Source: Thermoanaerobaculia bacterium
GTDB lineage: Bacteria; Acidobacteriota; Thermoanaerobaculia; Multivoradales; Multivoraceae
DNA length: 64,000 nucleotides
Assembly: GCA_963666565.1 (NCBI GenBank)
Contig: OY762911.1
Location: 1,024,001-1,088,000 of the forward strand
Direction: 5' to 3'
This document shows positions 8,484 through 20,883 of this stretch, piece by piece (within the stretch, counting starts at the first letter, position 1; every line of letters starts with the position of its first letter). The position numbers were made by a program, and so were the translations under genes. The notes below the pieces were generated by a model that was not told the DNA's origin, did no database searches, and was given only the letters and a program-made list of their open reading frames with translations.

Positions 8484-10043
8484 GTGGACACCCCCTCCCT
8501 CCACATCGTCGACTACCTGATCGTCGGGGCGAGCCTCGTCCTGTCGGTCGGGGTCGGCGTCCGCTTTGCGAAGGCCCAATCGACAACCTCGAAGTACTTC
8601 GCCGCCGGCCGCAACGTGCCGGTGTGGGCCATCGGCCTGTCGATCTTCGCGACGCTGATCAGCAGCCTCACCTTCCTGGCCTACCCGGGCGACGGCTTCG
8701 CCGGCGACTGGGTGCGCCTGGTGCAGGGCCTGATGGTGCCGATCGTCGTGCTGCTCGGCATCGGCTTCATCGTGCCGATGTACCGCAAGGTCATCGGCCT
8801 CAGCGCCTACGAGTACTTCGAGCGCCGCTTCGGCTACCTGGCCCGGCTCTACGCCTCGCTGGCCTTTGTGCTGGCGCAGTTCGCCGGCATGGGCTCGGTC
8901 TTCTTCCTGCTGGCGCTGGCGGTCTCCAGCATGACCGGCATCGGCGTCGTGACGGTGGTCGTCGTGCTCGGCCTGGTTGTCACCGTCCTGACGCTCCTCG
9001 GCGGGATGGAGGCCGTCATCTGGCTCGACGTGATCCAGGGGGTGCTGCTCATCCTGGGCGGCCTCGTCACCCTGCTCGTCATCGCGGTCAAGCTCGACGG
9101 CGGCCTGGGCCAGGTGTTCACCGTCGCGGCCGCCGAGAACAAGGTGAGCCTCGGCTCGTTCGACTGGAACCTGGCCGAGCTGACCTTCTGGGTGATGGCG
9201 ATCAACGGCATCTTCTACGCCGTCCAGAAGTACGGCACGGACCAGACGATGGTGCAGCGCTACCTGACCGCCCGGTCGGACCGGGAGGCGATCCGGGCGT
9301 CGATCGGCGGCGTGCTGATGGTGGTGCCGGTGTGGGTGCTGTTCATGTTCATCGGCACCGCGCTCTACGCCTTCTACCAGGGCCAGGCGTCGCTGCCGGA
9401 CGGCCTGCGGGCCGACGCCGTGTTCCCGCACTTCATCCTGAACGAGATGCCGGTCGGCGTCGTCGGGCTGATCATCGCGGCGCTGCTGGCGGCCGCGATC
9501 TCGTCGCTCGACTCGGACCTCAACTGCCTGGCGGCCGTCGCCGTCGACGACTACTACAAGAAGCTGCGGCCGCGGAGCACCGAGCTGCAGCGGGTGCGCG
9601 TGGGGAAGATCGTCGTCACGCTGTCGGGCATCGGCTCGATCGTCGTCGCGCTGATCTACGTCGCCGTCGGCGACGCGGGCGTGCTGGCGACCGTGTTCGC
9701 CCTCTACGCGATCTTCTCGGGCGGCATCGCCGGGATGTTCCTGCTCGGCATCTTCGTGCCGCGCGTCAACAAGGAGGGCCTCTACGTCGGCATCGGCGTC
9801 TGCGTGCTGTTCACCGCCGCCGCCCTGCTCACCTCGACCGAGTTCAGCCTCGGCGGCGAGCCGCGCATCTGGCTGGATTTGGGCCCGCTCAACTACACGC
9901 AGCACAACTACATGCTCGGCGTGTACAGCCACATCGTGCTGTTCGGTGTCGCCTGGGCGGCGAGTTGCTTCTTCCCCGCGCGGGACGTGGATCGGAACCT
10001 GACCTATGCTGGCTGGAAAGATCGGAAGCGAAGCGAGGCTTGA
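8484..10043 (+). CDS. Sodium:solute symporter
   Basis: YFAAGRNVP, SAYEYFERRFG, DQTMVQRYL, AAISSLDS motifs; polytopic. Confidence 0.93.
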   Translation: MDTPSLHIVDYLIVGASLVLSVGVGVRFAKAQSTTSKYFAAGRNVPVWAIGLSIFATLISSLTFLAYPGDGFAGDWVRLVQGLMVPIVVLLGIGFIVPMYRKVIGLSAYEYFERRFGYLARLYASLAFVLAQFAGMGSVFFLLALAVSSMTGIGVVTVVVVLGLVVTVLTLLGGMEAVIWLDVIQGVLLILGGLVTLLVIAVKLDGGLGQVFTVAAAENKVSLGSFDWNLAELTFWVMAINGIFYAVQKYGTDQTMVQRYLTARSDREAIRASIGGVLMVVPVWVLFMFIGTALYAFYQGQASLPDGLRADAVFPHFILNEMPVGVVGLIIAALLAAAISSLDSDLNCLAAVAVDDYYKKLRPRSTELQRVRVGKIVVTLSGIGSIVVALIYVAVGDAGVLATVFALYAIFSGGIAGMFLLGIFVPRVNKEGLYVGIGVCVLFTAAALLTSTEFSLGGEPRIWLDLGPLNYTQHNYMLGVYSHIVLFGVAWAASCFFPARDVDRNLTYAGWKDRKRSEA

Positions 10044-10055
10044 GGAGGTGACGAG

Positions 10056-11636
10056 GTGAAGCAGCAGTGGTGCTCTGGGTGCGCGGGTCTTCTGACCCGC
10101 TTGCCGCCGAAGGCGGCAGCAAAATCGCCGCCGGCGAAGCCGGCGACCGCATTCCCTGGGCTGCGCCGCTTCGCGGCTTCGCCCAGAGGCGGGTCAGAAG
10201 ACCCGCGCACCCAGAGATACGGCATCGGCTTGGCGGCACTCCTCCTCCTCGCCGCCTGCGCCGCTCCTGACGCCACACCGCCCACCACCGACACCAACAC
10301 CCCCTGGAACGTAGTCCTCTTCCTCGCCGACGACCTCGCCTGGAACCAGGTCGGCTACCACGGCACGACCTTCTACGAAACGCCGACCATCGACGCCGTC
10401 GCCGCCGCCGGCATGACCTTCTCGAACGCCTACTCGGCCAACCCCGTCTGCTCGCCGACCCGCGCCAGCCTGATGACCGGCAAGAACCCGGCGCGTCTCC
10501 AGATCACCGACTACATCCCCGGCAGCCCGTACCCGTACGCGCGCCTCCTGCGCCCGGCGGAGGTCCCCGGCCTGCCGCTCGAAGAGGTAACGCTCGCCGA
10601 GCTCTTCAAGTCCCGGGGCTACGCCACCGGCCACTTCGGCAAGTGGCACCTCAACGTCGACAAGGAGTACGTGCCCGGCCGGCCGATGGACCCGGCTTCC
10701 CAGGGCTTCGACGACATCCTGACCACCGTCAAGCCGGAGTACGAGGACGACCCGCTCGCCGACGCCCACCACGCCCGCGAGATCACGGACCGGTCGCTCG
10801 CCTTCCTCGACGCGAACCGGGACAACCCGTTCTTCCTCTACGTCACCCACCACGTCGTCCACCGACCGCTGCTGGAGGACCCGAAGCTGATCGCCAAGTA
10901 CGAGGCGAAGCCCGGCGCCGACGACCCGGTCAACAACTCGATCATGGGCGCGATGATCGAGACGATGGACACCGGCTTCGGGCAGATCCTCGACCGCATC
11001 GAGGAGCACGGCCTGACCGAGCGGACGATCGTCATCTTCTACTCCGACAACGGCGGCTTCGAGCAGCTCCAGGCGCAGGACCCCTTCCGCGGCGGCAAGG
11101 CGATGATCTGGGAAGGCGGCATCCGCGTGCCGCTGGCCGTCAAGTGGCCGGGCGTGGTCGAGCCCGGCAGCGCCAGCGACGAACTGATCACCTCGGACGA
11201 CTTCTTCGCGACGATCGCCGGCATCCTCGGCGTCGACGAACTCCCCGCCGACATCGACGGCGTGAGCCTCCTGCCGGTGCTCGACGGGACCGGCTCGCTC
11301 GACCGCGACACCCTCTACTTCCACTACCCGCACTACCACCACCTCGGCTACATGCCCGCCGGCGCGATCCGGCAAGGCGACTACAAGCTGATCGAGTGGT
11401 TCGAAGGCACGATCGCCGGGGTGGGCCCCGCCGTCAGCCTCTTCAACCTGGCAAAGGACCCCGGCGAGACGACCAACCTGGCCGCCGAGAAACCCGAGCT
11501 GGCTGACAGCCTGCTCCAGCAACTCGCCGCCTGGCGCCAGGAGATCGGCGCCGACGAGATGACCGTCAACCCCGGCTACGAGGAAGCCCGCCACGACTGG
11601 CGCTTCGTCGACGAACACGGAGGCGACGCCAGATGA
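10056..11636 (+). CDS. Formylglycine-dependent sulfatase, predicted lipoprotein, with a REPIN-derived N-terminal insert
   Basis: CSPTR, GKWHL, SDNGG, EGGIRVP; lipobox LLLLAAC; GGAGG upstream of the GTG start. Confidence 0.92.
   Translation: MKQQWCSGCAGLLTRLPPKAAAKSPPAKPATAFPGLRRFAASPRGGSEDPRTQRYGIGLAALLLLAACAAPDATPPTTDTNTPWNVVLFLADDLAWNQVGYHGTTFYETPTIDAVAAAGMTFSNAYSANPVCSPTRASLMTGKNPARLQITDYIPGSPYPYARLLRPAEVPGLPLEEVTLAELFKSRGYATGHFGKWHLNVDKEYVPGRPMDPASQGFDDILTTVKPEYEDDPLADAHHAREITDRSLAFLDANRDNPFFLYVTHHVVHRPLLEDPKLIAKYEAKPGADDPVNNSIMGAMIETMDTGFGQILDRIEEHGLTERTIVIFYSDNGGFEQLQAQDPFRGGKAMIWEGGIRVPLAVKWPGVVEPGSASDELITSDDFFATIAGILGVDELPADIDGVSLLPVLDGTGSLDRDTLYFHYPHYHHLGYMPAGAIRQGDYKLIEWFEGTIAGVGPAVSLFNLAKDPGETTNLAAEKPELADSLLQQLAAWRQEIGADEMTVNPGYEEARHDWRFVDEHGGDAR
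10075..10214. repeat. REPIN-like element A inside the sulfatase 5' end
   Basis: Both 26-bp arms present; inverted repeat extends to ctctggg/cccagag. Confidence 0.92.
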
Positions 11637-11642
11637 AGAACG

Positions 11643-11839
11643 CTGGGTGCGCGGGTCTTCCGACCCGCACTGGGTGCGCGGGTCTTCCGACCCGCACTGG
11701 GTGCGCGGGTCTTCTGACCCGCATGCCGCCGGAGGCGGCAAGGAACATTGTCGCCGGCCCTTGGCCGGCGGCCGCTCTTCCCGGGCTACGCCGCTCCGCG
11801 GCTTCGCCCCCATGCGGGTCGGAAGACCCGCGCACCCAG
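11643..11839. repeat. REPIN-like element A with three tandem left arms (27-bp period)
   Basis: Arms start at 11643, 11670 and 11697; right arm 11814..11839. Confidence 0.92.
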
Positions 11840-11895
11840 GGAACAGCCGTCGGCATGGGCAGGTTCGCTGCCTGAGTTGAGGAACCGGGAGCCGC

Positions 11896-13224
11896 ATGAC
11901 CACTCTCAACCGCCGCGATGCTCTTCTCGCCGCCCTCGGCCTCGGCGCCGCCGGTGCCGCCCGTCCCCTGCGCGCCCTGCGGCGACAACCCCAACAACAC
12001 GGCCCCCTAGAACGCACCTTCGAAGACGCCAAGCCCCTCAACCTCCGCATCACCGACCTCCGCACCTTCCTCGTCGACGCCGGCAACGACGAGAACTTCG
12101 TCTTCGTCAAGCTCTACACCAACCAGGGCATCACCGGCCTCGGCGAAGGCACCCTCGCCAACAAGGGCGAGGTCGTCGCCGCCGCCATCGAGAACCACAA
12201 GCGCTACCTCGTCGGCAAGGATCCGACCGAGATCGAGCGCCACTGGCGCGGCATGTTCATCGGCCCGCGCTACCGCGGCGGCCCGGTCCTCATGTCGGCG
12301 CTCTCCGCGGTCGAGATAGCCATGTGGGACATCCTCGGGCAGGCCCTCGGCCAGCCGATCTGGCAGCTCCTCGGCGGCAAGGCCCGCGACAGGGTGCGGC
12401 TCTACTGCCACGAGGGCTACCTCGAACGGATCGGCCACCGCCAGAAGCGCCGCGCCGCCGACTACGAGGAGGAGCTCGACCTCTGGCGCCAGAAGAAGGA
12501 GGACGGCTGGACCTGCGTCAAGGGCGGCTTCTACCCGGGCGGCCGGCCCATCGACCACCGCGTGTCGATCCGCCGCGGCGTCGAGCACCTCGCCCGGGTG
12601 CGCGAGATCGTCGGGCCGGACTTCGACATCATCGTCGAGGCGCACGGCAAGCCGACGCCGCTCTCCGCCGTCGAGTTCTGCAACCGGGTGGAGGAGTACC
12701 GGCCGTTCTGGGTCGAGGAGGTCACCCAGCTCGAGAACGAGGCGATCGAGGAGGTCCGCCAGATCCGCGCCCAGACCCGCGTGCCGCTGGCGACCGGCGA
12801 GCGCCTCACCTCCCGCTACCACTTCGCGCCGCTGTGCTCGGAGCGGCTCGTCGACGTGATCATGCCGGACGTCGTCCACGTCGGCGGCATCTCCGAGCTG
12901 CGCAAGATCGCGATCATGGCCGAGGGCTTCCGTGTCGACGTGTCGCCGCACAACCCGCAGAGCGAGGTCGGCACCCTTGCCTCCATGCACGTCTGCGCCT
13001 GCACCCCGAACTGCACCATCCTCGAAATCGGCAGCGGCCAGGACCCGTTCTGGCAGGACCTCTTCCACGGCGGCCACTTCTGCTACGAACGCGGCTTCGC
13101 CAAGCTCCCCAGCCGCCCCGGCCTCGGCATCGACCTCGACGAGGAAGTCGCCGCGAAGTTCCCGTACGAGCCGAAGAACTGGAGCACGTTGACCACCGAA
13201 GATGGCGCGTTCGTGGATCGATAA
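11896..13224 (+). CDS. Mandelate racemase/enolase-superfamily acid-sugar dehydratase (DgoD-like) with a Tat-like leader
   Basis: ITGLGE, AMWDILG..LGQPIWQLLGG, PLATGE, PHNP, PGLGID; N-terminal NRRDALL. Confidence 0.9.
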   Translation: MTTLNRRDALLAALGLGAAGAARPLRALRRQPQQHGPLERTFEDAKPLNLRITDLRTFLVDAGNDENFVFVKLYTNQGITGLGEGTLANKGEVVAAAIENHKRYLVGKDPTEIERHWRGMFIGPRYRGGPVLMSALSAVEIAMWDILGQALGQPIWQLLGGKARDRVRLYCHEGYLERIGHRQKRRAADYEEELDLWRQKKEDGWTCVKGGFYPGGRPIDHRVSIRRGVEHLARVREIVGPDFDIIVEAHGKPTPLSAVEFCNRVEEYRPFWVEEVTQLENEAIEEVRQIRAQTRVPLATGERLTSRYHFAPLCSERLVDVIMPDVVHVGGISELRKIAIMAEGFRVDVSPHNPQSEVGTLASMHVCACTPNCTILEIGSGQDPFWQDLFHGGHFCYERGFAKLPSRPGLGIDLDEEVAAKFPYEPKNWSTLTTEDGAFVDR

Positions 13225-15082
13225 CGCTGGGTGCGCACCCAGAGCAACGGCGTCGTCGTGGTGTACCGCTCTGCTGTGGGCCGCCACCCTCGGCTGCACC
13301 GCGCCGGCCGCCGACCGCACCGCCGAACTCGCCGCTCGCGAAGCCGGCAACCCCGGCGGCGAGAACTTCGGCGAGTTCGGCCCGCCGGACGCCTACGAAG
13401 GCGACTCCCCGCACCCCTTCTACGGCGCCGAGAACGAGTGGAGCCGCCGCATGTTCGACGAGCGCTCCGCCGACCTCTACTACAAGCGCCGCGGCCAGCG
13501 GCAACTGCTCGAGATCCTCGACGGCAACCCAACCCGCGCGATCGAGTTGGCCGACGCCCGGCTCGCCGCGCACATGTTTGACGCCGAGTCGCTGTTCATC
13601 AAGGCAGTCGCGCGGGCTCAACTCGGCCGGATCGAGCAGGCCGAGGACGCGATGCTCAGCGCGATCGCTTTCGGCATGCCCGCCGGCCGTTTTCTCGCCG
13701 GACCGCGCGAGTTGCTCGAACCGCTCGCCGCGACCGAGACCTTCACGGCGCACGCGGCCCGCCCGAGGAACGCGATCGTCCACGGCCCCATGCTGGGCGC
13801 CGTCACCGACACCAGCGCCAGCGTCTGGATCCGCACCGCCGTGGCGAGCGGCTTCGAAGTCGTCGCGACCGCCGGGAACGAACGGCACGTCGCCTCCGGC
13901 GCCACCGCCGCCGACCGCGACTACACCGGCACGGCGACGCTCCGCGGCCTCTCGCCGGACACGACCTACAGCTACCAGGTCCTCGTCGCCGCGACCCCGG
14001 AACCGCCTCCGCCGTCGCAGCCGCCCGACAGCAACGCACGCACACCTTCGCCGCGGCCGGCAACGGACGGCGCCTCCCGGCCGCCGTCCCAACCGCCGAG
14101 CTACACCCTCCGCACCTCCCCGCCCCCCGGCGCCCCCGGCACCGTGACCATCGCCTTCGGCGGTTGCGCCGGCTACACGCCGCAGAACGAACGGATGTGG
14201 GACACGATCGCCGCCCACGGCCCGCGGGCGCTGCTCCTGCTCGGCGACAACGTCTACATCGACCTGCCGGAGCAGCCCGGCCCGTTCCACGACTACGCCT
14301 ACTACCAGCGCCAGTCGCGCCCCGAGTTCCGGCGCCTGGTGAGCGCGACTCCGGTCTACGCCGTCTGGGACGACCACGACGCGGCCTTCGACGACATCTG
14401 GCTCGGTCCCTACGTCGACCGCCCGGCCTGGAAGCTGCCGATGGTCGAGCACTTCCGCCGCAACTGGAACAACCCGGCTTCCGGGTCGGCGTCGCACCCC
14501 GGCGTCTGGTTCCGGTTCTCGCTCGGCGACGTCGACTTCTTCCTGCTCGACGGCCGCACCTACCGGACGAACCCCTTCGTCGAAGAGCGTACCATGCTCG
14601 GCCCGGTGCAGAAGGCCTGGCTGCTCGACGGGCTGCGCGCCTCCGAGGCCACGTTCAAGGTGATCGCCAGCCCGGTCGCCTGGGCCGACGGCGCCAAGCC
14701 CGGCAGCCGCGACACCTGGTCGGGGTTCCCGGAGGAGCGGGAGGAGATCTTCCGTTTCGTCGAGGAGAACGACGTGACCGGCGTGGTGCTGCTCTCGTCC
14801 GACCGGCACCGGTCCGAGGCATGGGTGATCGAGCGCGAGAGCGGCTATGCGTTCCACGACCTCCTGAGCGGGCAGTTGACGAATATCCACACGCATCCGA
14901 TCGAGCCGGGCGCGCTGTTCAGTTACAACCTGAAGGACTCGTTCGGCTTGCTGACGTTCGAGACGGTGGGTGAGGATCCGCGGGTGACTTACCGGATCTA
15001 CTCGATCGACGATGAGTTGGTGGAGACTCTGGTGATTCCGCACGCCGACCTCGCCGTCACCGGTGAAGAAGGGAAGCAGTAA
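13202..15082 (+). CDS. phoD: Alkaline phosphatase D family protein, predicted lipoprotein
   Basis: LLGDNVYID, WDDHD, LLDGRTYR, MLGPVQKAWL, SDRH; lipobox ATLGC; start codon uncertain. Confidence 0.85.
   Translation: MARSWIDNAGCAPRATASSWCTALLWAATLGCTAPAADRTAELAAREAGNPGGENFGEFGPPDAYEGDSPHPFYGAENEWSRRMFDERSADLYYKRRGQRQLLEILDGNPTRAIELADARLAAHMFDAESLFIKAVARAQLGRIEQAEDAMLSAIAFGMPAGRFLAGPRELLEPLAATETFTAHAARPRNAIVHGPMLGAVTDTSASVWIRTAVASGFEVVATAGNERHVASGATAADRDYTGTATLRGLSPDTTYSYQVLVAATPEPPPPSQPPDSNARTPSPRPATDGASRPPSQPPSYTLRTSPPPGAPGTVTIAFGGCAGYTPQNERMWDTIAAHGPRALLLLGDNVYIDLPEQPGPFHDYAYYQRQSRPEFRRLVSATPVYAVWDDHDAAFDDIWLGPYVDRPAWKLPMVEHFRRNWNNPASGSASHPGVWFRFSLGDVDFFLLDGRTYRTNPFVEERTMLGPVQKAWLLDGLRASEATFKVIASPVAWADGAKPGSRDTWSGFPEEREEIFRFVEENDVTGVVLLSSDRHRSEAWVIERESGYAFHDLLSGQLTNIHTHPIEPGALFSYNLKDSFGLLTFETVGEDPRVTYRIYSIDDELVETLVIPHADLAVTGEEGKQ
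13227..13242. repeat. 16-bp perfect palindrome ctgggtgcgcacccag, the two outer ends of the REPIN joined
   Basis: Exact fusion of the left end ctgggtgc and the right end gcacccag. Confidence 0.75.
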
Positions 15083-17970
15083 TGAGCCGCGCCGCGGGTA
15101 CCGTCGTACCTCTGGGTGCGCGGGTCTTCCGACCCGCCTGCCGGACGGAGCCGCGGAGCGGCGTAGGCCGGCGAAGAAATGGTCGCCGGCTTCGCCGGCG
15201 GCGATTCAAAGCCGCCTTCGGCGGCAGCGGGTCAGAAGACCCGCGCACCCAGAGCACCGTCGTTGCAGTCGCCCTACTTCTTCTCCTTGTCGTCACGGCC
15301 TGCGCCCCACCTCCCGACGACGCCAGGACCAGCGCAGTCGAAGCCACCGCCCTCTGGCTGTTCGACGAACCCGCCGGCCTCTACCCGAGCCACACGCTCG
15401 ACGACATGTCGGACAACGACATGGTCCTCACTCTCGGCCTCGGCGCCCAGGTCGCTCCGGGCCGCTACGGCAACGCCCTGCTGCTCGCCCCGCTCGACCC
15501 GCCGCTCGAAGTGCCCCCGGCTGAAGAGAAGCCGGTCGAGTTCGGGATGGCTCGCCTGCCGACGCCCGAAGGACGCACCGTCGAGCCGCTGAGCTGGTTC
15601 ACCGCCCACTTCGCGGCGCTGATGACGTCCGGCGAGAACCATCTCCGTAAACAGGTCGGCCACAAGAACCCGACGACCCGCGCGCTCAACATCGGCGACT
15701 TCGACTGGACGGTCGAGTTCTGGCACTCGCCGGGCGATGCCGCCGCGCCCGCCGACGCCCCGACCACAGGAGACGCACCGGCCGCGACCGAAGGCGTCGT
15801 CTTCGAGATAGGCACCGGCCCCCGAGGCGAGAACGACGTGGTCACCCGACTCGCCTGGTCCGCCGACCGCTCCCGTTTCGTCCTCGCTAATCAGCCTGCC
15901 GGGGTCTCCGTCGACATCCCGACCGCCGCCGCCCCGACCGCCACCGCCCCGACCGCCACCGTCCCGACCGCCACCGACGTCGCCACACCCGTCGGCGACG
16001 CGACCGCCACCGGCGCGCCGGCCGCCGCCGCCGACCCAGCCGCTCCCGCATGGCGCCACTACGCCTTCACCTACGACGCCACCGCCGACCAGCTCCGCCA
16101 CTACGTCGACGGCGCTATCCAGCCCCTGCCGCCGCCCACCGCCCTCGCAGCCCTCCCCGAAGGCGACGAGGCCTACTTCGCCCTGGGCACCGACGCCCTC
16201 TGGAACCGCCGCCTCACCGGCCTCCTCGACGAGTTCCGCGTTAGCCGCGGCCTCGTCTACACGACCGACTTCGACCCGCCCGGGACCTTCGCCACCCAAC
16301 CCGCCCCCGTCGAACTCACCCAGGGCCCGCCGCTCCTCTTCGCCGCCGACTCCACCGGCGCCCCCGCCGCCAACGACTTCGCCGGCGCCTCCGCCGCCGC
16401 CTCGACCGGCGCCTCCACCGGCGCCTCCGCCAACGCCTCCGCCACCGACTCCGTCAACGCCGTCGCCGTCGCCGGCGCCACCCCCGCCCCCCTGCGCCTC
16501 GGCGCCCGCAAGCACCTGTTCATCGACGACGCCCTCCTCGCCACCACCGGCGACGCCACCTTCACCGTCAACCCGCCGCGCCGCGCCGAGCGCGTCATCG
16601 ACAACATCAAGGGCACGTTCCGCAAGCACCTCACCGTCGCCTCCGGGGACGACGGCGTGATCCGCATCTACAACTCGAGGGAAGAGGACCACCTTGCCGT
16701 CTACACCTCGACCGACGGCGTCCACTTCGACCGGCCTGACCAGGGGCGCGGCGAGATCAACGGCCACCGCAACATCGTCATCCCCGACATGGTGGGCGGC
16801 CTCGGCAATCCGTTTCGGGACCCGAACGGGCCTCCCGAGGAACGCTGGAAGTACCTCACGGACTACCAGCGGCGCGGCCTCTACCTCTACACGTCGGCCG
16901 ACGGCTACGAGTGGACGCGGCGGCGCAACATCGTCCTGCCGTTCCGGTCGGGCACCCAGAGCAGCACCTACTACGACGACCAGCGGCAGGTCTACATGTC
17001 CTACCACCGCTCCGGCATCTTCCACACGCCCGGCGGCGTGACGCAGCGCAGTTCGGTGGTCACGGAGCACGAGGACCTGCGCGCGACCCAGCCGTTCCGG
17101 CCGCTGACGCAGCAGGAGTACCTAGACCTGCGCGCCGAGTACCCGCTCCGCGACCCGCTGCCGTGGTGGGTGGACAACGGCCCGCTGACGCCGGGCGGGT
17201 TCGGCATGGAGTACCCGCACCTCTTCGACCCGACCCCCGAGGACCCGGTGGGCACCGACTTCTACCTCACCAAGGCGATGAAGTACCCCTACGCCCCGGA
17301 CACCTACCTCGCCTTCCCGGTGGGTTACTTCCACTACTACGGCGACGGCCCGGAGGCGCGCAGGGTGCTGGGCCTGGAAGAGCGCGGCCTCGGCTCCGGC
17401 CCGCTCGAATCCCAGATCGCCACGAGCCGCAACGGACTCGACTGGAAGCGCCACCCCGAGCCGGCCTACGTGGGCATCGGCCGCCACCAGGGCCGCGACG
17501 TGGTCACCGCCTACATCGGCCACGGCATGATCCGCCGCGGCGAGGAACTCTGGCAGTACTACTTCGGCGAGACGCACTACCACTCGCCCCACACGCAGGA
17601 CCCGGACGGCCGCGGCGTCTACCGGCTCGTCCAGCGCCTCGACGGCTTCATCTCGCTGGACAGTCCGTACGGGCACGAGACGACGGTCGTCACGCGGCCG
17701 CTCACGTTCGAGGGCGACCGCCTGGAACTCAACGTCGACACCGACGCCGTCGGCTACCTGCAGGTCGGCTTCCTGGACGAGCGGGGGCGGCCCATCGAGG
17801 GCTACGCGGTGGACGACTGCGTGTACGTCAACGGCGACTTCATCGCGAAGGAAGTCGACTGGCTGGAGACAGGGACCGACGTGTCGCCGCTGGCCGGCCG
17901 CACCGTGCAGGTCGTGTTCCGCATGAGAGGCGCCAAGCTCTACGCGATGGAGTTCGTGGAAGGAGGATAG
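15082..17970 (+). CDS. Lipoprotein with a LamG-like jellyroll and a glycoside-hydrolase-like beta-propeller; REPIN insert in the N-terminus
   Basis: DWTVEFW, WRHYAFTYD, GLLDEFRVS; Asp-box-like S.DG..W/F repeats; RLDGFISL, TRPLTFEG; lipobox VVTAC. Confidence 0.75.
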   Translation: MSRAAGTVVPLGARVFRPACRTEPRSGVGRRRNGRRLRRRRFKAAFGGSGSEDPRTQSTVVAVALLLLLVVTACAPPPDDARTSAVEATALWLFDEPAGLYPSHTLDDMSDNDMVLTLGLGAQVAPGRYGNALLLAPLDPPLEVPPAEEKPVEFGMARLPTPEGRTVEPLSWFTAHFAALMTSGENHLRKQVGHKNPTTRALNIGDFDWTVEFWHSPGDAAAPADAPTTGDAPAATEGVVFEIGTGPRGENDVVTRLAWSADRSRFVLANQPAGVSVDIPTAAAPTATAPTATVPTATDVATPVGDATATGAPAAAADPAAPAWRHYAFTYDATADQLRHYVDGAIQPLPPPTALAALPEGDEAYFALGTDALWNRRLTGLLDEFRVSRGLVYTTDFDPPGTFATQPAPVELTQGPPLLFAADSTGAPAANDFAGASAAASTGASTGASANASATDSVNAVAVAGATPAPLRLGARKHLFIDDALLATTGDATFTVNPPRRAERVIDNIKGTFRKHLTVASGDDGVIRIYNSREEDHLAVYTSTDGVHFDRPDQGRGEINGHRNIVIPDMVGGLGNPFRDPNGPPEERWKYLTDYQRRGLYLYTSADGYEWTRRRNIVLPFRSGTQSSTYYDDQRQVYMSYHRSGIFHTPGGVTQRSSVVTEHEDLRATQPFRPLTQQEYLDLRAEYPLRDPLPWWVDNGPLTPGGFGMEYPHLFDPTPEDPVGTDFYLTKAMKYPYAPDTYLAFPVGYFHYYGDGPEARRVLGLEERGLGSGPLESQIATSRNGLDWKRHPEPAYVGIGRHQGRDVVTAYIGHGMIRRGEELWQYYFGETHYHSPHTQDPDGRGVYRLVQRLDGFISLDSPYGHETTVVTRPLTFEGDRLELNVDTDAVGYLQVGFLDERGRPIEGYAVDDCVYVNGDFIAKEVDWLETGTDVSPLAGRTVQVVFRMRGAKLYAMEFVEGG
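15112..15252. repeat. REPIN-like element A (141 bp), interior in opposite orientation to the 10075 copy
   Basis: Both arms present; accgtcgt lies near both flanks (15100..15107, 15256..15263). Confidence 0.92.
15919..15978 (+). repeat. 15-bp tandem repeat x4 encoding PTA(A/T)x
   Basis: ccgaccgcc(g/a)ccgnc units; a 12-bp repeat also occurs at about 16384..16443. Confidence 0.8.
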
Positions 17971-17972
17971 GA

Positions 17973-20747
17973 ATGTTCGGCAAGAGACCACACCCTGGGT
18001 GCACGTGTCGATGCACGGGTCGGTGCGCGGGTCTTCTGACCCGCATGGCCGCCGAAGGCGGCGAAGGACATCGTCGCCGGCCCTTGGCCGGCGGCCGTGT
18101 TGTCTCGGGCTGCGCCGCTTCGCGGCTGCGCCCGAAAGCGGGTCGGAAGACCCGCGCACCCAGCGCACCCATAGTCGCCCTGGCCGCTCTGCTGCCCCTG
18201 GCCGCCACCCCCACCACCGCCGCAACAGGCCCCCAAACCACCCCCATCGACCTCGACGCCTACGCCAGCGTCCTCCACGTCTCCACCACCACCGGCAACG
18301 ACACCACAGGCAACGGCGTCGCAGCCACCCCGTACGCCACCCTCACCGCCGCCCTCGCCGCCGCCGCCGCATCCGCCAACGTAACCGACACCAACCGCAC
18401 AGCCATCCTCATGGCCGCCGGCACCTACCCAACCCACAACCTCACCCTGCCCCCGAACACCGACCTCTACGGCGGCTTCAACCCCACCTCCACCGACTGG
18501 ACCCGCGACCGCGACATCCAGGTCCACCCAACCATCCTCGACGCTCAGGGCGAAGACCGCGTCCTCACCATCGCCGCCGCCTCCGGTACCGCCGCCGACG
18601 CGACCGCCCCCGTCTCCGCCGGCGCCGGCACTCCCGCCACCCCCACCAACCGCCTAGACGGCCTCCGCATCCAGGGCGGCCGGGTTCGCGCCCCCGGCGG
18701 CGGCATCCTCATCGACGGCGCCTCACCCGTCCTCACCAACAACGTCTTCACCGGCCACAGCACTCTCACCCCCGAAGGCTGGGCCCCCAAGTACCTCCAC
18801 GAAACCGCCCACGACGGCGGCGCCATCTACTGCCGCAACGGCGGCGCCCCGGAAATCCGCAACAACCTGATCGCCGAGAACGGCACCCAAACCGGCCGCG
18901 GCGGCGGCATCGCCTTCGACGGTCACTGCGACGGCCTGATCGCCGACAACGTCCTAATCGGCAACGTCGCCGGCACCGCCGACACGATGCGCAGCAGCGA
19001 CGGCGGCGGCATCTCCATCTTCAACTGGTCGTCGCCCGAGATCAGCGGCAACGTCGTCCTCGAGAACTGGGCCTTCAACAACAACGACGGCGGCGGCATC
19101 TTCGTCGCTTACTGGTCCTCGGCCAGGGTCCGCGACAACGTCATCGTCGCCAACATGGGCGGAGACGACGGGGGCGGCCTGTTCGTGGGCGGCCAGGAGC
19201 ACCGCTACGACCGGCCGTTCGACCCGATGCCGAGCGCCGGGGACTTCTTCGTCGAAGTGACCGGCAACCGCTTCTTCGGCAACTCCAACCCCTCCGGCAA
19301 CTCCGGCGCCCTGCGCATCACGATGGAGAGCCGCGGCCGGGTCGAGGGCAACGTCGCCGCGCTCAACGGCGGCTTCTACCTGCAGCGGAGCGAGCTGGAG
19401 GTCGTGGACAACACGATCCTCGAAGACACCCTGCTCATCGAGACCAAGGAGGGGCTCGAGCCCACGCGCTTCAGCAACAACATCGTTGCCGGGTCGCTGG
19501 AGAGCGACCGCACCGCGATCGTCACCGCGTCCCTGATCCGCGACGGTTCCGTGGGCGAAGGCAACGAGGCTGGACTACCCGAGTTCCTCGACGACGGCCG
19601 GGAACTCCAGGTGGTCGGCGCCTCCTGGTCCGCAGTTGGCCACCAGACCCACGTCACCGTCGCGGCGCCGCTTCCCGCCGCGGATCTCACCAACCGCGTC
19701 GTCGCCAGCAGCGGCGGCTGGGGGGTCGTCCACTCCGCCTCCGGCCGCCACCTGACCCTCTGGGGCGACCTCCGTTCCGCCACCGAGCTCCGCCTCCTGC
19801 CGACCTACCGCCAGATCGCCGATTCACCCGGCTTCGGCAAGGGCTTCGACGCCGCCCGCGCGGTCTCCGACCACGAGCCGCGGCGCGTCAACAAGTCCAT
19901 CGAACTCCTCGAGCGCGGTCAGCCCATCTACTACGACGCCTCCACCGGCGGCTACGAGGAAGGCGTGCAGATGGCCGGCACCTGGGGCGACTACATCATC
20001 TACAACGTCGAGCACGTGGCGCTCGACTTCGCGGCGCTCCGCGAGTTCATGCGCGGCCTGGTCGACGCCGGCCCCACCCCGAGCGGCCACCGGACGCCGA
20101 CCGTCATCGTCTCCCTGCCCCTGCTCGGCCTCGACGAACCGACCGTCACCGCCGGCGGCTGGATGGTCCAGCAGGCCCTAGCCCAGGGCGTCCACGGCGT
20201 CCACCTCGCCCGCGCCCGCGACCCCGAGGGCGTCAAGCGCTTCGTCCAGGCCGCCCGCTACCCGATCCACAAGCAGGCCGTCGACATCGTGGGCGAAGGC
20301 CTCCGCGGCTGGGGCAGCCACACCTTCGCCGCCTGGGTCTGGGGCCTCAGCGTCCCGGAGTACCTCCAGAAAGCCGACGTCTGGCCTCTCAACCCCGAAG
20401 GCGAGATCATGCTCGGCGTCAAGCTGGAAGACCAGCAGGCACTGGACCGGGCCGCCGAGACGCTCTCCGTCCCCGGCCTGGCCTTCGCCGAGCATGGCCC
20501 GCGGGACCTGGGCCTGTCGTATGGCTACCTGGAAGGCCGCGCCGACCCGCCGCTGCCGCCCGAGGTCGTCGCCGCCGGGGACATGGTGCTGGGGCTGACC
20601 AAGGAGCGGGGGATGTTCTTTCTGGACAATGTGCTGCCCGAGAACGTGGCGGGCCAGATCGACCGCGGCGTGATGATCGGCGCGGGCCGGCGGGAGGATT
20701 CGGCGGAGGTGGGGAGGGAGTACAGCGGGCGGAGGATGCCTTGGTAG
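17973..20747 (+). CDS. Secreted right-handed beta-helix protein fused to a C-terminal HpcH/HpaI aldolase-like domain; REPIN insert in the N-terminus
   Basis: GGAGGA RBS; G.D...G....PY.T start, GGGI/GGAI coils; C-terminal DVWPLNPEGEIMLGVKLED, HGPRDLGLS. Confidence 0.75.
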   Translation: MFGKRPHPGCTCRCTGRCAGLLTRMAAEGGEGHRRRPLAGGRVVSGCAASRLRPKAGRKTRAPSAPIVALAALLPLAATPTTAATGPQTTPIDLDAYASVLHVSTTTGNDTTGNGVAATPYATLTAALAAAAASANVTDTNRTAILMAAGTYPTHNLTLPPNTDLYGGFNPTSTDWTRDRDIQVHPTILDAQGEDRVLTIAAASGTAADATAPVSAGAGTPATPTNRLDGLRIQGGRVRAPGGGILIDGASPVLTNNVFTGHSTLTPEGWAPKYLHETAHDGGAIYCRNGGAPEIRNNLIAENGTQTGRGGGIAFDGHCDGLIADNVLIGNVAGTADTMRSSDGGGISIFNWSSPEISGNVVLENWAFNNNDGGGIFVAYWSSARVRDNVIVANMGGDDGGGLFVGGQEHRYDRPFDPMPSAGDFFVEVTGNRFFGNSNPSGNSGALRITMESRGRVEGNVAALNGGFYLQRSELEVVDNTILEDTLLIETKEGLEPTRFSNNIVAGSLESDRTAIVTASLIRDGSVGEGNEAGLPEFLDDGRELQVVGASWSAVGHQTHVTVAAPLPAADLTNRVVASSGGWGVVHSASGRHLTLWGDLRSATELRLLPTYRQIADSPGFGKGFDAARAVSDHEPRRVNKSIELLERGQPIYYDASTGGYEEGVQMAGTWGDYIIYNVEHVALDFAALREFMRGLVDAGPTPSGHRTPTVIVSLPLLGLDEPTVTAGGWMVQQALAQGVHGVHLARARDPEGVKRFVQAARYPIHKQAVDIVGEGLRGWGSHTFAAWVWGLSVPEYLQKADVWPLNPEGEIMLGVKLEDQQALDRAAETLSVPGLAFAEHGPRDLGLSYGYLEGRADPPLPPEVVAAGDMVLGLTKERGMFFLDNVLPENVAGQIDRGVMIGAGRREDSAEVGREYSGRRMPW
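17995..18163. repeat. REPIN-like element A with a degenerate 12-bp stutter in the left arm
   Basis: ctgggtgcacgtgtcg-atgcacgggtcg-gtgcgcgggtcttctgacccgc ... gcgggtcggaagacccgcgcacccag. Confidence 0.9.
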
Positions 20748-20883
20748 CGAGTCAGAACCCTGCCCCGGTTCGCGGTCCGCTCGCCGCAGTGCGCCGTCAG
20801 GGGGCCAGCGGATAGCGGCGGGTCACGTCGAGAAACGCCTCCGTGTCCACGGGCCGCTCGAGCGGATCCGGCTGCGTCAGGGC

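Follow-up and report, generated by a model that had tools for sequence, protein, structure and literature searches.

The subject of this analysis is a set of palindromic repeats lying in frame at the signal-peptide ends of genes in one operon of a Thermoanaerobaculia bacterium (genome G000, a single contig of 4,786,144 bp and 70.2% G+C). The window, that is the whole stretch of 64,000 nucleotides analysed (G000:C1:1024001-1088000), contains at 8484-20747 a single string of co-directional genes, with reading frames backed by Pfam, in which a symporter is followed by the genes g1 to g5 (Table 1). The genes are closely packed: 12 nt separate the symporter stop from the g1 start, g3 begins within the last 23 nt of g2, its ATG context being conserved in relatives, the g4 ATG overlaps the g3 stop (TAATG) and the g5 start, with its Shine-Dalgarno (SD) sequence, is 5 nt past the g4 stop. 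A hydrophobic core is readable from the sequence in g1, g3, g4 and g5, and the first three also show a lipobox of the form L-[AS]-[GA]-C.

All five junctions of this operon (5/5) carry an array of repetitive extragenic palindromic (REP) units, an inverted doublet of such units (REPIN, a REP doublet forming a hairpin) or a remnant. The unit consists of a conserved flank or tag, CTGGGTGCGC, followed by a GGGTC-TTCY-GACCC hairpin. In g1 CTGGGTGC is found from 10075 (+19 after the start), and the REPIN reads in frame as 48 residues of n-region and is followed by RYGIGLAALLLLAAC, the signal peptide having the form MKQQW-REPIN-RYGIGLAALLLLAAC. In g4 CTGGGTGC is found from 15112 (+30 after the start), with TVVAVALLLLLVVTAC after the element, in a signal peptide of the form MSRAAGTVV-REPIN-STVVAVALLLLLVVTAC; here no in-frame ATG, GTG or TTG lies between the REPIN and the lipobox. 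In the g5 leader (MFGKRPH, degenerate tags and REPIN, then SAPIVALAALLPLAA) the first degenerate tag is found at 17995 (+22 after the start), and the whole insert is in frame and followed by PIVALAALLPLAA. Folding energies of the g1, g4 and g5 REPINs are -115.1, -114.4 and -115.5 kcal/mol (z -11, -9.8 and -9.2, respectively). The g3 gene retains only the 16-bp palindrome CTGGGTGCGCACCCAG, which we take to be a remnant or footprint since it is made up of the two outer REPIN tags without the hairpins. The REP array between g1 and g2 starts 4 nt past the g1 stop, and no REP is present in the window within g2 itself, whose leader is twin-arginine-like (MTTLNRRDALLAALG). In g1, g3, g4 and g5 the repeats all follow the start codon and precede the hydrophobic core or lipobox. 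A search of 9500-18500 against Rfam gave no family match at E up to 0.1.

The element coordinates, offsets, frames and peptides in the first-pass annotation (CAGLLTR or LGARVFRP on entering the element, GSEDPRTQ or GRKTRAP on leaving it) all proved correct by sequence. It had also remarked that the copy read as LGARVF, that of g4, has a TTCC loop where TTCT would give a stop codon. The left loop of the g4 REPIN is indeed TTCC and the trend holds weakly beyond it, all seven units read in the GARVFRP frame having TTCC compared with 513 of the 857 listed F1 loops (868 units).

Table 1. Positions of the repeats, the operon genes and the transposase-like gene (window numbering unless stated otherwise)
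Feature	Position	Strand	Remarks
REPIN of g1	10073..10216	+	two inverted F1 REP units (10078-10100, +; 10189-10211, -) with an asymmetric core between them
REP array, three direct F1 units and one inverted	11640..11845	+	untranslated g1/g2 spacer, upstream of the g2 start
16-bp palindrome of g3, CTGGGTGCGCACCCAG	13227..13242	+	+25 from the ATG, in frame in the n-region; then ...LLWAATLGC
REPIN of g4 (F1+/F1-)	15110..15254	+	inverted repeat; read in frame as LGARVFRP...GSEDPRTQ
Degenerate tag copies (17995-18021) and REPIN of g5	17995..18165	+	F1+ 18022-18044, F1- 18138-18160
Sodium:solute symporter, first gene of the operon	8484..10043	+	Pfam SSF, E 3.4e-43; synteny retained in relatives
SD (AGGAGG) and GTG start of g1	10043-10048 and 10056-10058	+	SD 7 nt upstream; from sequence
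g1, sulfatase lipoprotein precursor	10056..11636	+	Pfam Sulfatase, E 4.7e-51
g2, enolase-superfamily (MR/MLE) enzyme	11896..13224	+	Pfam MR_MLE_C, E 5.3e-57
g3, PhoD-like phosphatase lipoprotein precursor	13202..15082	+	Pfam PhoD, E 5.8e-29
g4, LamG-domain lipoprotein precursor	15082..17970	+	Pfam Laminin_G_3
g5, secreted right-handed beta-helix protein precursor	17973..20747	+	Pfam Beta_helix in the g5 frame
RAYT-like open reading frame	L028:1057-1932 = G000:C1:748983-749858		HIH and YY motifs

The position of the translation starts was addressed by comparison with 17 other species of the same genus in which the operon is syntenic, the g1, g3, g4 and g5 junctions being read in each (genomes and loci are referred to by G and L numbers, respectively). 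For 49 alleles of g1, g4 and g5 the best combination of SD and start codon between the upstream stop and the first repeat was picked, with reading frame ignored. A strict motif yielded such a start in 42 of the 49 alleles and, of these 42, 41 proved to share the frame of the mature protein, with no stop across the repeats, over 36 distinct lengths. In the relatives the start so chosen for g1 falls at the position of the g1 SD and GTG, and in the alleles of this set the first REP unit lies at least 16 nt past the start codon. The exception is g1 of G002 (L026), where the leader and its REP are intact and in frame and the frame is lost some 100 codons further on, inside the sulfatase domain, which would indicate either a pseudogene or an assembly error. 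The seven alleles lacking a start by the strict motif include the window g4, which has a weaker SD (GGGAAG). Alleles without REPs retain the start codons seen in their repeat-bearing counterparts: the empty g4 allele (L006/L015; G018) keeps the window start (MSHVGPGAGAVAFLLLLGLTAC), as do the collapsed g1 allele (L019; G013; MKQQSHTGCVGMAAFAFVLAAC) and the REP-free g3 allele (L011; G001; MARSWIGELSAALLAAVVGC). Furthermore, 23 of 55 REP-bearing alleles contain no in-frame ATG, GTG or TTG from the first REP to the hydrophobic core, and starts inside the element are nearly always without an SD, which the upstream starts possess. Since REP-free alleles keep the same start and frame-blind SD-starts are in frame, the starts lie upstream of the repeats, and not downstream as the first-pass annotation had allowed they might; it follows that the repeats would be read as signal-peptide n-region.

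The frame of the mature protein is also kept free of stops. REP segments were scanned within 300-330 nt upstream of the mature-protein anchor in 67 junction alleles from 18 genomes, 59 of which carry REPs, representing 57 unique sequences. None of the 57 contains a stop in the gene frame, as compared to 17/57 in the +1 frame and 5/57 in the +2 frame, or 22/114 for the two other frames combined (Fisher p 1.2e-4); this internal control agrees with the upstream starts and points to selection on the REPs to remain open. The distance between start and anchor ranges from 123 to 396 nt in the operon, reaches 579 to 672 nt in two relatives and shrinks to 66-72 nt in REP-free alleles. The longest distances belong to the g5 junctions of L024 (G023) and L025 (G015), where the SD-start is 579 and 672 nt, respectively, upstream of the anchor with several REPs in between, all open in frame; on sequence this implies leaders with roughly 100-130 extra residues, or a second start.

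Junction contents vary by species. They encompass GGGTC-stem doublets, GGACC-stem doublets with longer arms, CCGGCC-stem units, one to three tandem 36-nt GCCGGCG-stem units, half elements, hybrids and bare tags, and some doublets have the asymmetric core inverted with the arms unchanged. Families coexist in one genome, with G001 combining a GGACC-type element at g1 with a GGGTC-type one at g4, and the differences between junctions are for this reason probably replacements or re-insertions rather than drift in place. The position of the g3 palindrome holds a full REP or REPIN in 15 of 18 loci of relatives, while REPs are found upstream of g2 in 10 of 18 genomes, mostly ahead of its start codon in the spacer. 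The empty alleles sought among orthologs were encountered at the g1, g3 and g4 junctions, as well as at two loci elsewhere in the genome that are described below. REP-free alleles look like secondary collapses that retain the left tag: g1 of G013 looks like an F2 unit minus its hairpin, and in g4 of G018 the sequence between CCGGTGC and CCGTTGC seems to have been deleted. Among species of the same genus, orthologous sites are found with or without a copy and differ in family, copy number and core orientation, which means that copies come and go.

Three details of individual alleles may be added. In L002, L004, L007 and L008 the core of the g4 REPIN (15110-15254 in the window) is flipped, with arms and length the same and both orientations stop-free; inversion by recombination between the inverted arms would fit. 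GGACC-stem doublets at g1 (L011, L021, L023 and L024) and at g3 (L014 and L019-L021) have extra outer arms, TGC(A/G)GTAGAGAA ... TTCTCTACTGCA, which lie about 35 nt outside the hairpins and contain GTAG, the right arm encoding FSTA immediately before the hydrophobic core. In g2 of L021 (G022) a CCGGCC-stem REP is in frame directly ahead of a twin-arginine-like LSRRDALL, and a leader of the twin-arginine translocation type may thus host a repeat too. Elsewhere in the operon genes, two segments of g4 (15890-16040 and 16340-16480) are low-complexity Pro/Thr/Ala-rich repeats of 15-nt period, linker-like in character (PTATAPTAT...), and an open reading frame (ORF) overlapping g5 (17999-20815) matched no Pfam family.

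The operon elements belong to a large family, as the first-pass annotation had proposed in calling them REPIN-like. In G000 the main family numbers 876 units in 539 clusters at up to 3 mismatches, far above chance, and with four minor stem families sharing the common flank the total rises to 1048 units in 676 clusters (868 F1, 123 F2, 34 F3, 13 F4 and 10 F5 units), the CTGGGTGCGC flank being kept in all five. Among the 539 clusters, inverted doublets are overwhelmingly of one polarity, 91 being '+-' and six '-+'; of the former, 41 measure 135-137 nt, where the length distribution has its main peak, and a second mode falls at 184-185 nt. A single match to PF01797 (Y1_Tnp) exceeds the cut-off in G000, that of an ORF resembling a REP-associated tyrosine transposase (RAYT), and the 3' end of this ORF runs in frame into four tandem F1 REP units (...WVRGSSDPHWVRGSSDPHPVRGSSDPHPVRGSSDPH..., read in the 3' flank). 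The elements can accordingly be described as of REP/REPIN type, non-autonomous palindromes of the kind that a RAYT mobilises in trans, and mobilisation by this RAYT-like protein is probable.

A census of G000 was made with 3466 gene models, covering 88% of the genome, from a purpose-built codon-bias finder (which itself placed the g1, g4 and g5 starts after the repeats) and with signal peptides called by a heuristic combining Kyte-Doolittle hydrophobicity with a lipobox regular expression. Of the 676 clusters, 400 directly precede a coding ORF, and in 67 of these a hydrophobic core follows within 25 residues with no start codon between. Sixty-one of the 67 are open with an upstream start, four are open without one and two are closed; a lipobox-like motif is present in 17 of the 61. 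In 34 of the 61 the cluster itself likewise offers no in-frame start, and an SD-start lies within 90 nt in 24 of the 34. By location, co-directional junctions account for 35 of the 61, divergent junctions for 4 and the interior of gene models for 22. The same procedure finds only 30 clusters flanked at both ends by coding sequence in the same frame, plus 20 at C-termini, so that there are more translated repeats in the short n-regions than in all other coding sequence combined. The genome-wide enrichment in signal peptides that the first-pass annotation had asked for is therefore present relative to other coding sequence and absent by gene class, as an N-terminal hydrophobic segment is no commoner in genes with a 5' REP (122/400, or 30%) than in the gene models at large (36%). 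For proteins without a hydrophobic N-terminus there are 61 candidates (no start within 30 codons), about ten of which have a positive coding score after the repeat; comparison with the 61 signal-peptide cases is rough, because most of these candidates look like open non-coding spacers.

Two of the 61 loci, both outside the operon, were compared with relatives and repeat the pattern. At G000:2005059 a REPIN follows MKF, and eight relatives have the same SD and ATG with MKSPCIALALTIAA... and no repeat, two of the eight retaining a tag-like CCCACTAGGTGCGC; of the 25 loci compared here, 14 have another N-terminal architecture and two are cut at contig ends. At G000:2460955 MSRTASSLPGPRR is followed by three tandem units; with the same start, a single unit of another family is present in one relative and no unit in another, and the other 17 of 20 loci have shorter REP-free leaders. 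This second gene faces a divergent neighbour, and a tight operon is consequently not required.

Placement across the genome bears on how such leaders may arise. REPs occupy 163 of 516 convergent, 99 of 516 divergent and 307 of 2433 co-directional junctions, lying at the last a median of 30 nt past the upstream stop (interquartile range 11.5-64) and a median of 77 nt ahead of the downstream model start. In the present operon the next start is -1 to +26 nt from the stop, and a repeat 15-70 nt after the stop is for that reason already in the next gene. We propose that REPs settle a few tens of bases past stops, which in compact operons would be the 5' end of the next gene. The ribosome would start at an SD-linked start directly after, or overlapping, the stop of the previous gene and would carry on across the repeat, lengthening the leader by 10 to 70 residues in which Arg, Gly, Ala and Pro abound. 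The entire leader would presumably then be cut off by signal peptidase, and the mature enzyme would for that reason be unchanged. A survival filter would operate, only stop-free inserts of a multiple of three in a dispensable segment escaping purifying selection, and the n-region of a cleaved signal peptide would be just such a segment. A site once occupied would stay occupied and turn over through other stem families, tandem copies, flipped cores and collapse to tags. That the repeat is both translated and tolerated in the n-region has, on the comparative sequence evidence, a probability of roughly 0.78. The repeats are most likely tolerated passengers and the mechanism of tolerance an ordinary one; from these patterns we infer that the inserts are neutral for the protein and that occupied sites are targeted anew. 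The first-pass annotation, whose observation is confirmed, had pictured the basic n-region as a safe haven in a tightly coupled operon, an interpretation that is partly supported: the permissive site stands, with 61 clusters, and the need for a tight operon does not, given the four divergent cases among the 61 and the divergent neighbour at 2460955.

Several observations weigh against this explanation. The near-complete occupancy of 59/67 across 17 species is higher than plain neutral passengers would obviously lead one to expect and would also fit selection for an RNA hairpin. Between 10 and 15% of the sequence words occur in two sponge metatranscriptome runs, with contigs 90-99% identical to parts of the operon (9500-18400) and hence from a related strain; these RNA contigs cover parts of the genes, stop at the repeats without bridging them and are silent on transcript ends, processing and translation. 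An open frame was rejected as a stand-alone argument since the baseline chance of a stop-free frame is itself 0.76-0.92 (0.92 below 60 nt, 0.76 for 120-200 nt and down to 0.68 depending on cluster length). In the census, 27 of the 61 clusters do have an in-frame start inside the cluster, five of them with an SD, and the genome-wide counts are approximate because signal peptides were called heuristically and gene models derived from codon bias. As regards the assignment to the REP/REPIN type, the RAYT-like protein matches NF047646 (REP-associated tyrosine transposase) with E 2.2e-21 and a score of 76.3 bits against a cut-off of 80 bits, and the GTAG/CGTC tag of the described REP super-families is not found next to the hairpin, where the tag is CTGGGTGCGC; GTAG turns up only in relatives, within the outer arms that distinguish the longer GGACC-stem elements.

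Apparent joints in the RNA contigs were examined and set aside as different REP copies joined, an effect of repeat assembly. DNA runs of 'organism A' contain 94-98% of the window segment 9500-18400.

The alternative that deserves most attention is that the repeats are useful as RNA, a stem-loop at the cistron boundary guarding the upstream mRNA from 3'-5' decay, making processing sites or slowing elongation and coupling, with each gene of the operon tuned separately and the n-region acting as a coding-neutral dock. This idea, which the first-pass annotation had raised as tuning of translation or mRNA processing and which is compatible with read-through, would account for the repeats or remnants at every operon junction, for the maintenance of the 59 occupied alleles among 67 in 18 genomes despite changes of family, number and orientation, for folds of about -115 kcal/mol, for the tendency of REPs to lie a median of 30 nt past stops and to be commonest at convergent junctions, and for the spacing of the first REP at least 16 nt past the start, which leaves the initiation region free. 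Yet three of the four junctions have REP-free alleles, it is occupancy that is conserved and not structure, size or sequence, and re-insertion at an existing REP or tag would yield the same pattern without function; we regard it as unlikely, if worth keeping in sight. A broader version, in which cleavable signal peptides are a general docking niche for REPINs and the hairpins are retained for acting on mRNA, is a shade more doubtful. There the n-region would be the sole place for RNA elements without protein cost, the hairpin might act via segmental stability, processing or the pacing of early elongation, and near-constant occupancy with free turnover would reflect selection for 'a hairpin here' beyond mere tolerance.

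A quite different possibility is that the repeats are extragenic and the long ORFs misannotated, translation beginning inside or after the repeat. This is how most N-terminal REPs are judged in Di Nocera, De Gregorio and Rocco 2013 (PMC3733652), which considers those of Pseudomonas, Citrobacter and Stenotrophomonas mostly extragenic; GC-rich ORFs do often stay open upstream of the true start, as the baseline above indicates, and some alleles offer an in-frame start in or after the repeat (TTG 10230 in g1, ATG 18045 in g5). Comparison nevertheless largely refutes it already, and it appears very improbable: the window g4 and 22 other alleles have no canonical start from the repeat to the hydrophobic core, post-repeat starts would give leaders devoid of a charged n-region (MAALLLLAAC), in-element starts almost never have the SD seen at upstream starts, and the in-frame position of 41 of 42 frame-blind starts, the absence of gene-frame stops from 57 unique segments and the shared upstream start of REP-free alleles all speak the other way. 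Marginally less credible again, by analogy with the extended signal peptides of autotransporters, is a function for the encoded peptide itself as an extended basic n-region that shifts targeting route or timing. The net charge of the translated clusters averages +3.2, with 79% of them on the positive side, but no selection for charge was detected, the charge per residue being slightly lower than in untranslated frames (0.116 against 0.156, p 0.035). Peptides at the same site are wholly different between species, and all six reading frames, and with them both orientations, are in use, so that the encoded peptide shows no sign of being selected; the earlier statement that it is not conserved is borne out. 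Reading of the repeats as tolerated n-region passengers is accordingly preferred.

Comparison with known systems helps to delimit what is new. In E. coli, REPs at convergent or 3' sites act as mRNA stabilisers. REPs and bacterial interspersed mosaic elements (BIMEs) are also said, from the work of Newbury in 1987 and of Liang, Rudd and Deutscher in 2015, to be mRNA 3' stabilisers and translation modulators near stops. The likeness lies in stable hairpins located a few to tens of nt past stops within operons; the E. coli elements, however, are in untranslated spacers. Rickettsia palindromic elements (RPEs) were reportedly described by Ogata et al. in 2000. RPEs belong to a reduced intracellular genome and occupy loops or surfaces in proteins of many kinds, in contrast to the present case, where the host segment is a leader predicted to be cleaved, the mature protein would be without the insert and the same sites turn over among species.

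The remaining parallels are drawn from portions of the papers cited. RPEs are in frame in functional genes, where they are tolerated, and some RPE-1 N-termini have been reported as expressed (PMC3733652, PMC2229807). For GTAG/CGTC REPs, Di Nocera and colleagues (PMC3733652) describe a mostly intergenic distribution near the 3' ends of ORFs, with some elements in frame in genes and intragenic ones commoner at the NH2 terminus of the ORF than at the COOH end. Short tagged palindromes and stop-proximal placement in other REP-rich genomes are shared with the present family; those portions make no link to signal peptides, whereas here read-through is deduced by comparison, translated repeats are concentrated in n-regions and the tag is CTGGGTGCGC. 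REPIN-RAYT systems, in which REPINs were described as extragenic (Bertels and Rainey 2011; PMC3116915), resemble the present elements in inverted doublets at fixed spacing, hundreds of copies, a single RAYT-like gene adjoining REPs and vertical persistence in a lineage, but differ in that about 9% of the clusters here (61/676) are in translated leaders. Similar in kind is the Yersinia YPAL/RU-2 miniature inverted-repeat transposable element (MITE), which forms part of the predicted signal peptide of YPO1552 (Delihas 2007; PMC2229807), likewise a small mobile repeat translated within an export signal. That case, however, concerns one hypothetical gene, with part of the signal itself supplied by the hydrophobic MITE peptide, while in the present case the repeat adds only n-region ahead of a pre-existing core, in known enzyme families and at many loci. 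It was the only example found in the literature on REPs, palindromic elements or MITEs and signal peptides, a survey whose scope did not extend to the supplementary tables of intragenic REPs in PMC3733652, which may contain cases. In-frame intragenic REPs were clearly already known; what is new is the scale, together with a persistence across the genus that goes with turnover and a strictly kept frame.

For this lineage, these results would overturn the usual assumption that an N-terminal REP is an annotation error, and gene callers that take the first post-repeat start would truncate dozens of signal peptides. Translated n-regions would also explain how about 1000 copies of an 'extragenic' family can be accommodated in a genome 88% covered by gene models. 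The inserts, readable in any of six frames, would amount to a natural experiment on the tolerance of Sec and lipoprotein n-regions and, if the hairpins are functional, RNA regulatory structure would have been placed inside coding sequence without cost to the protein.

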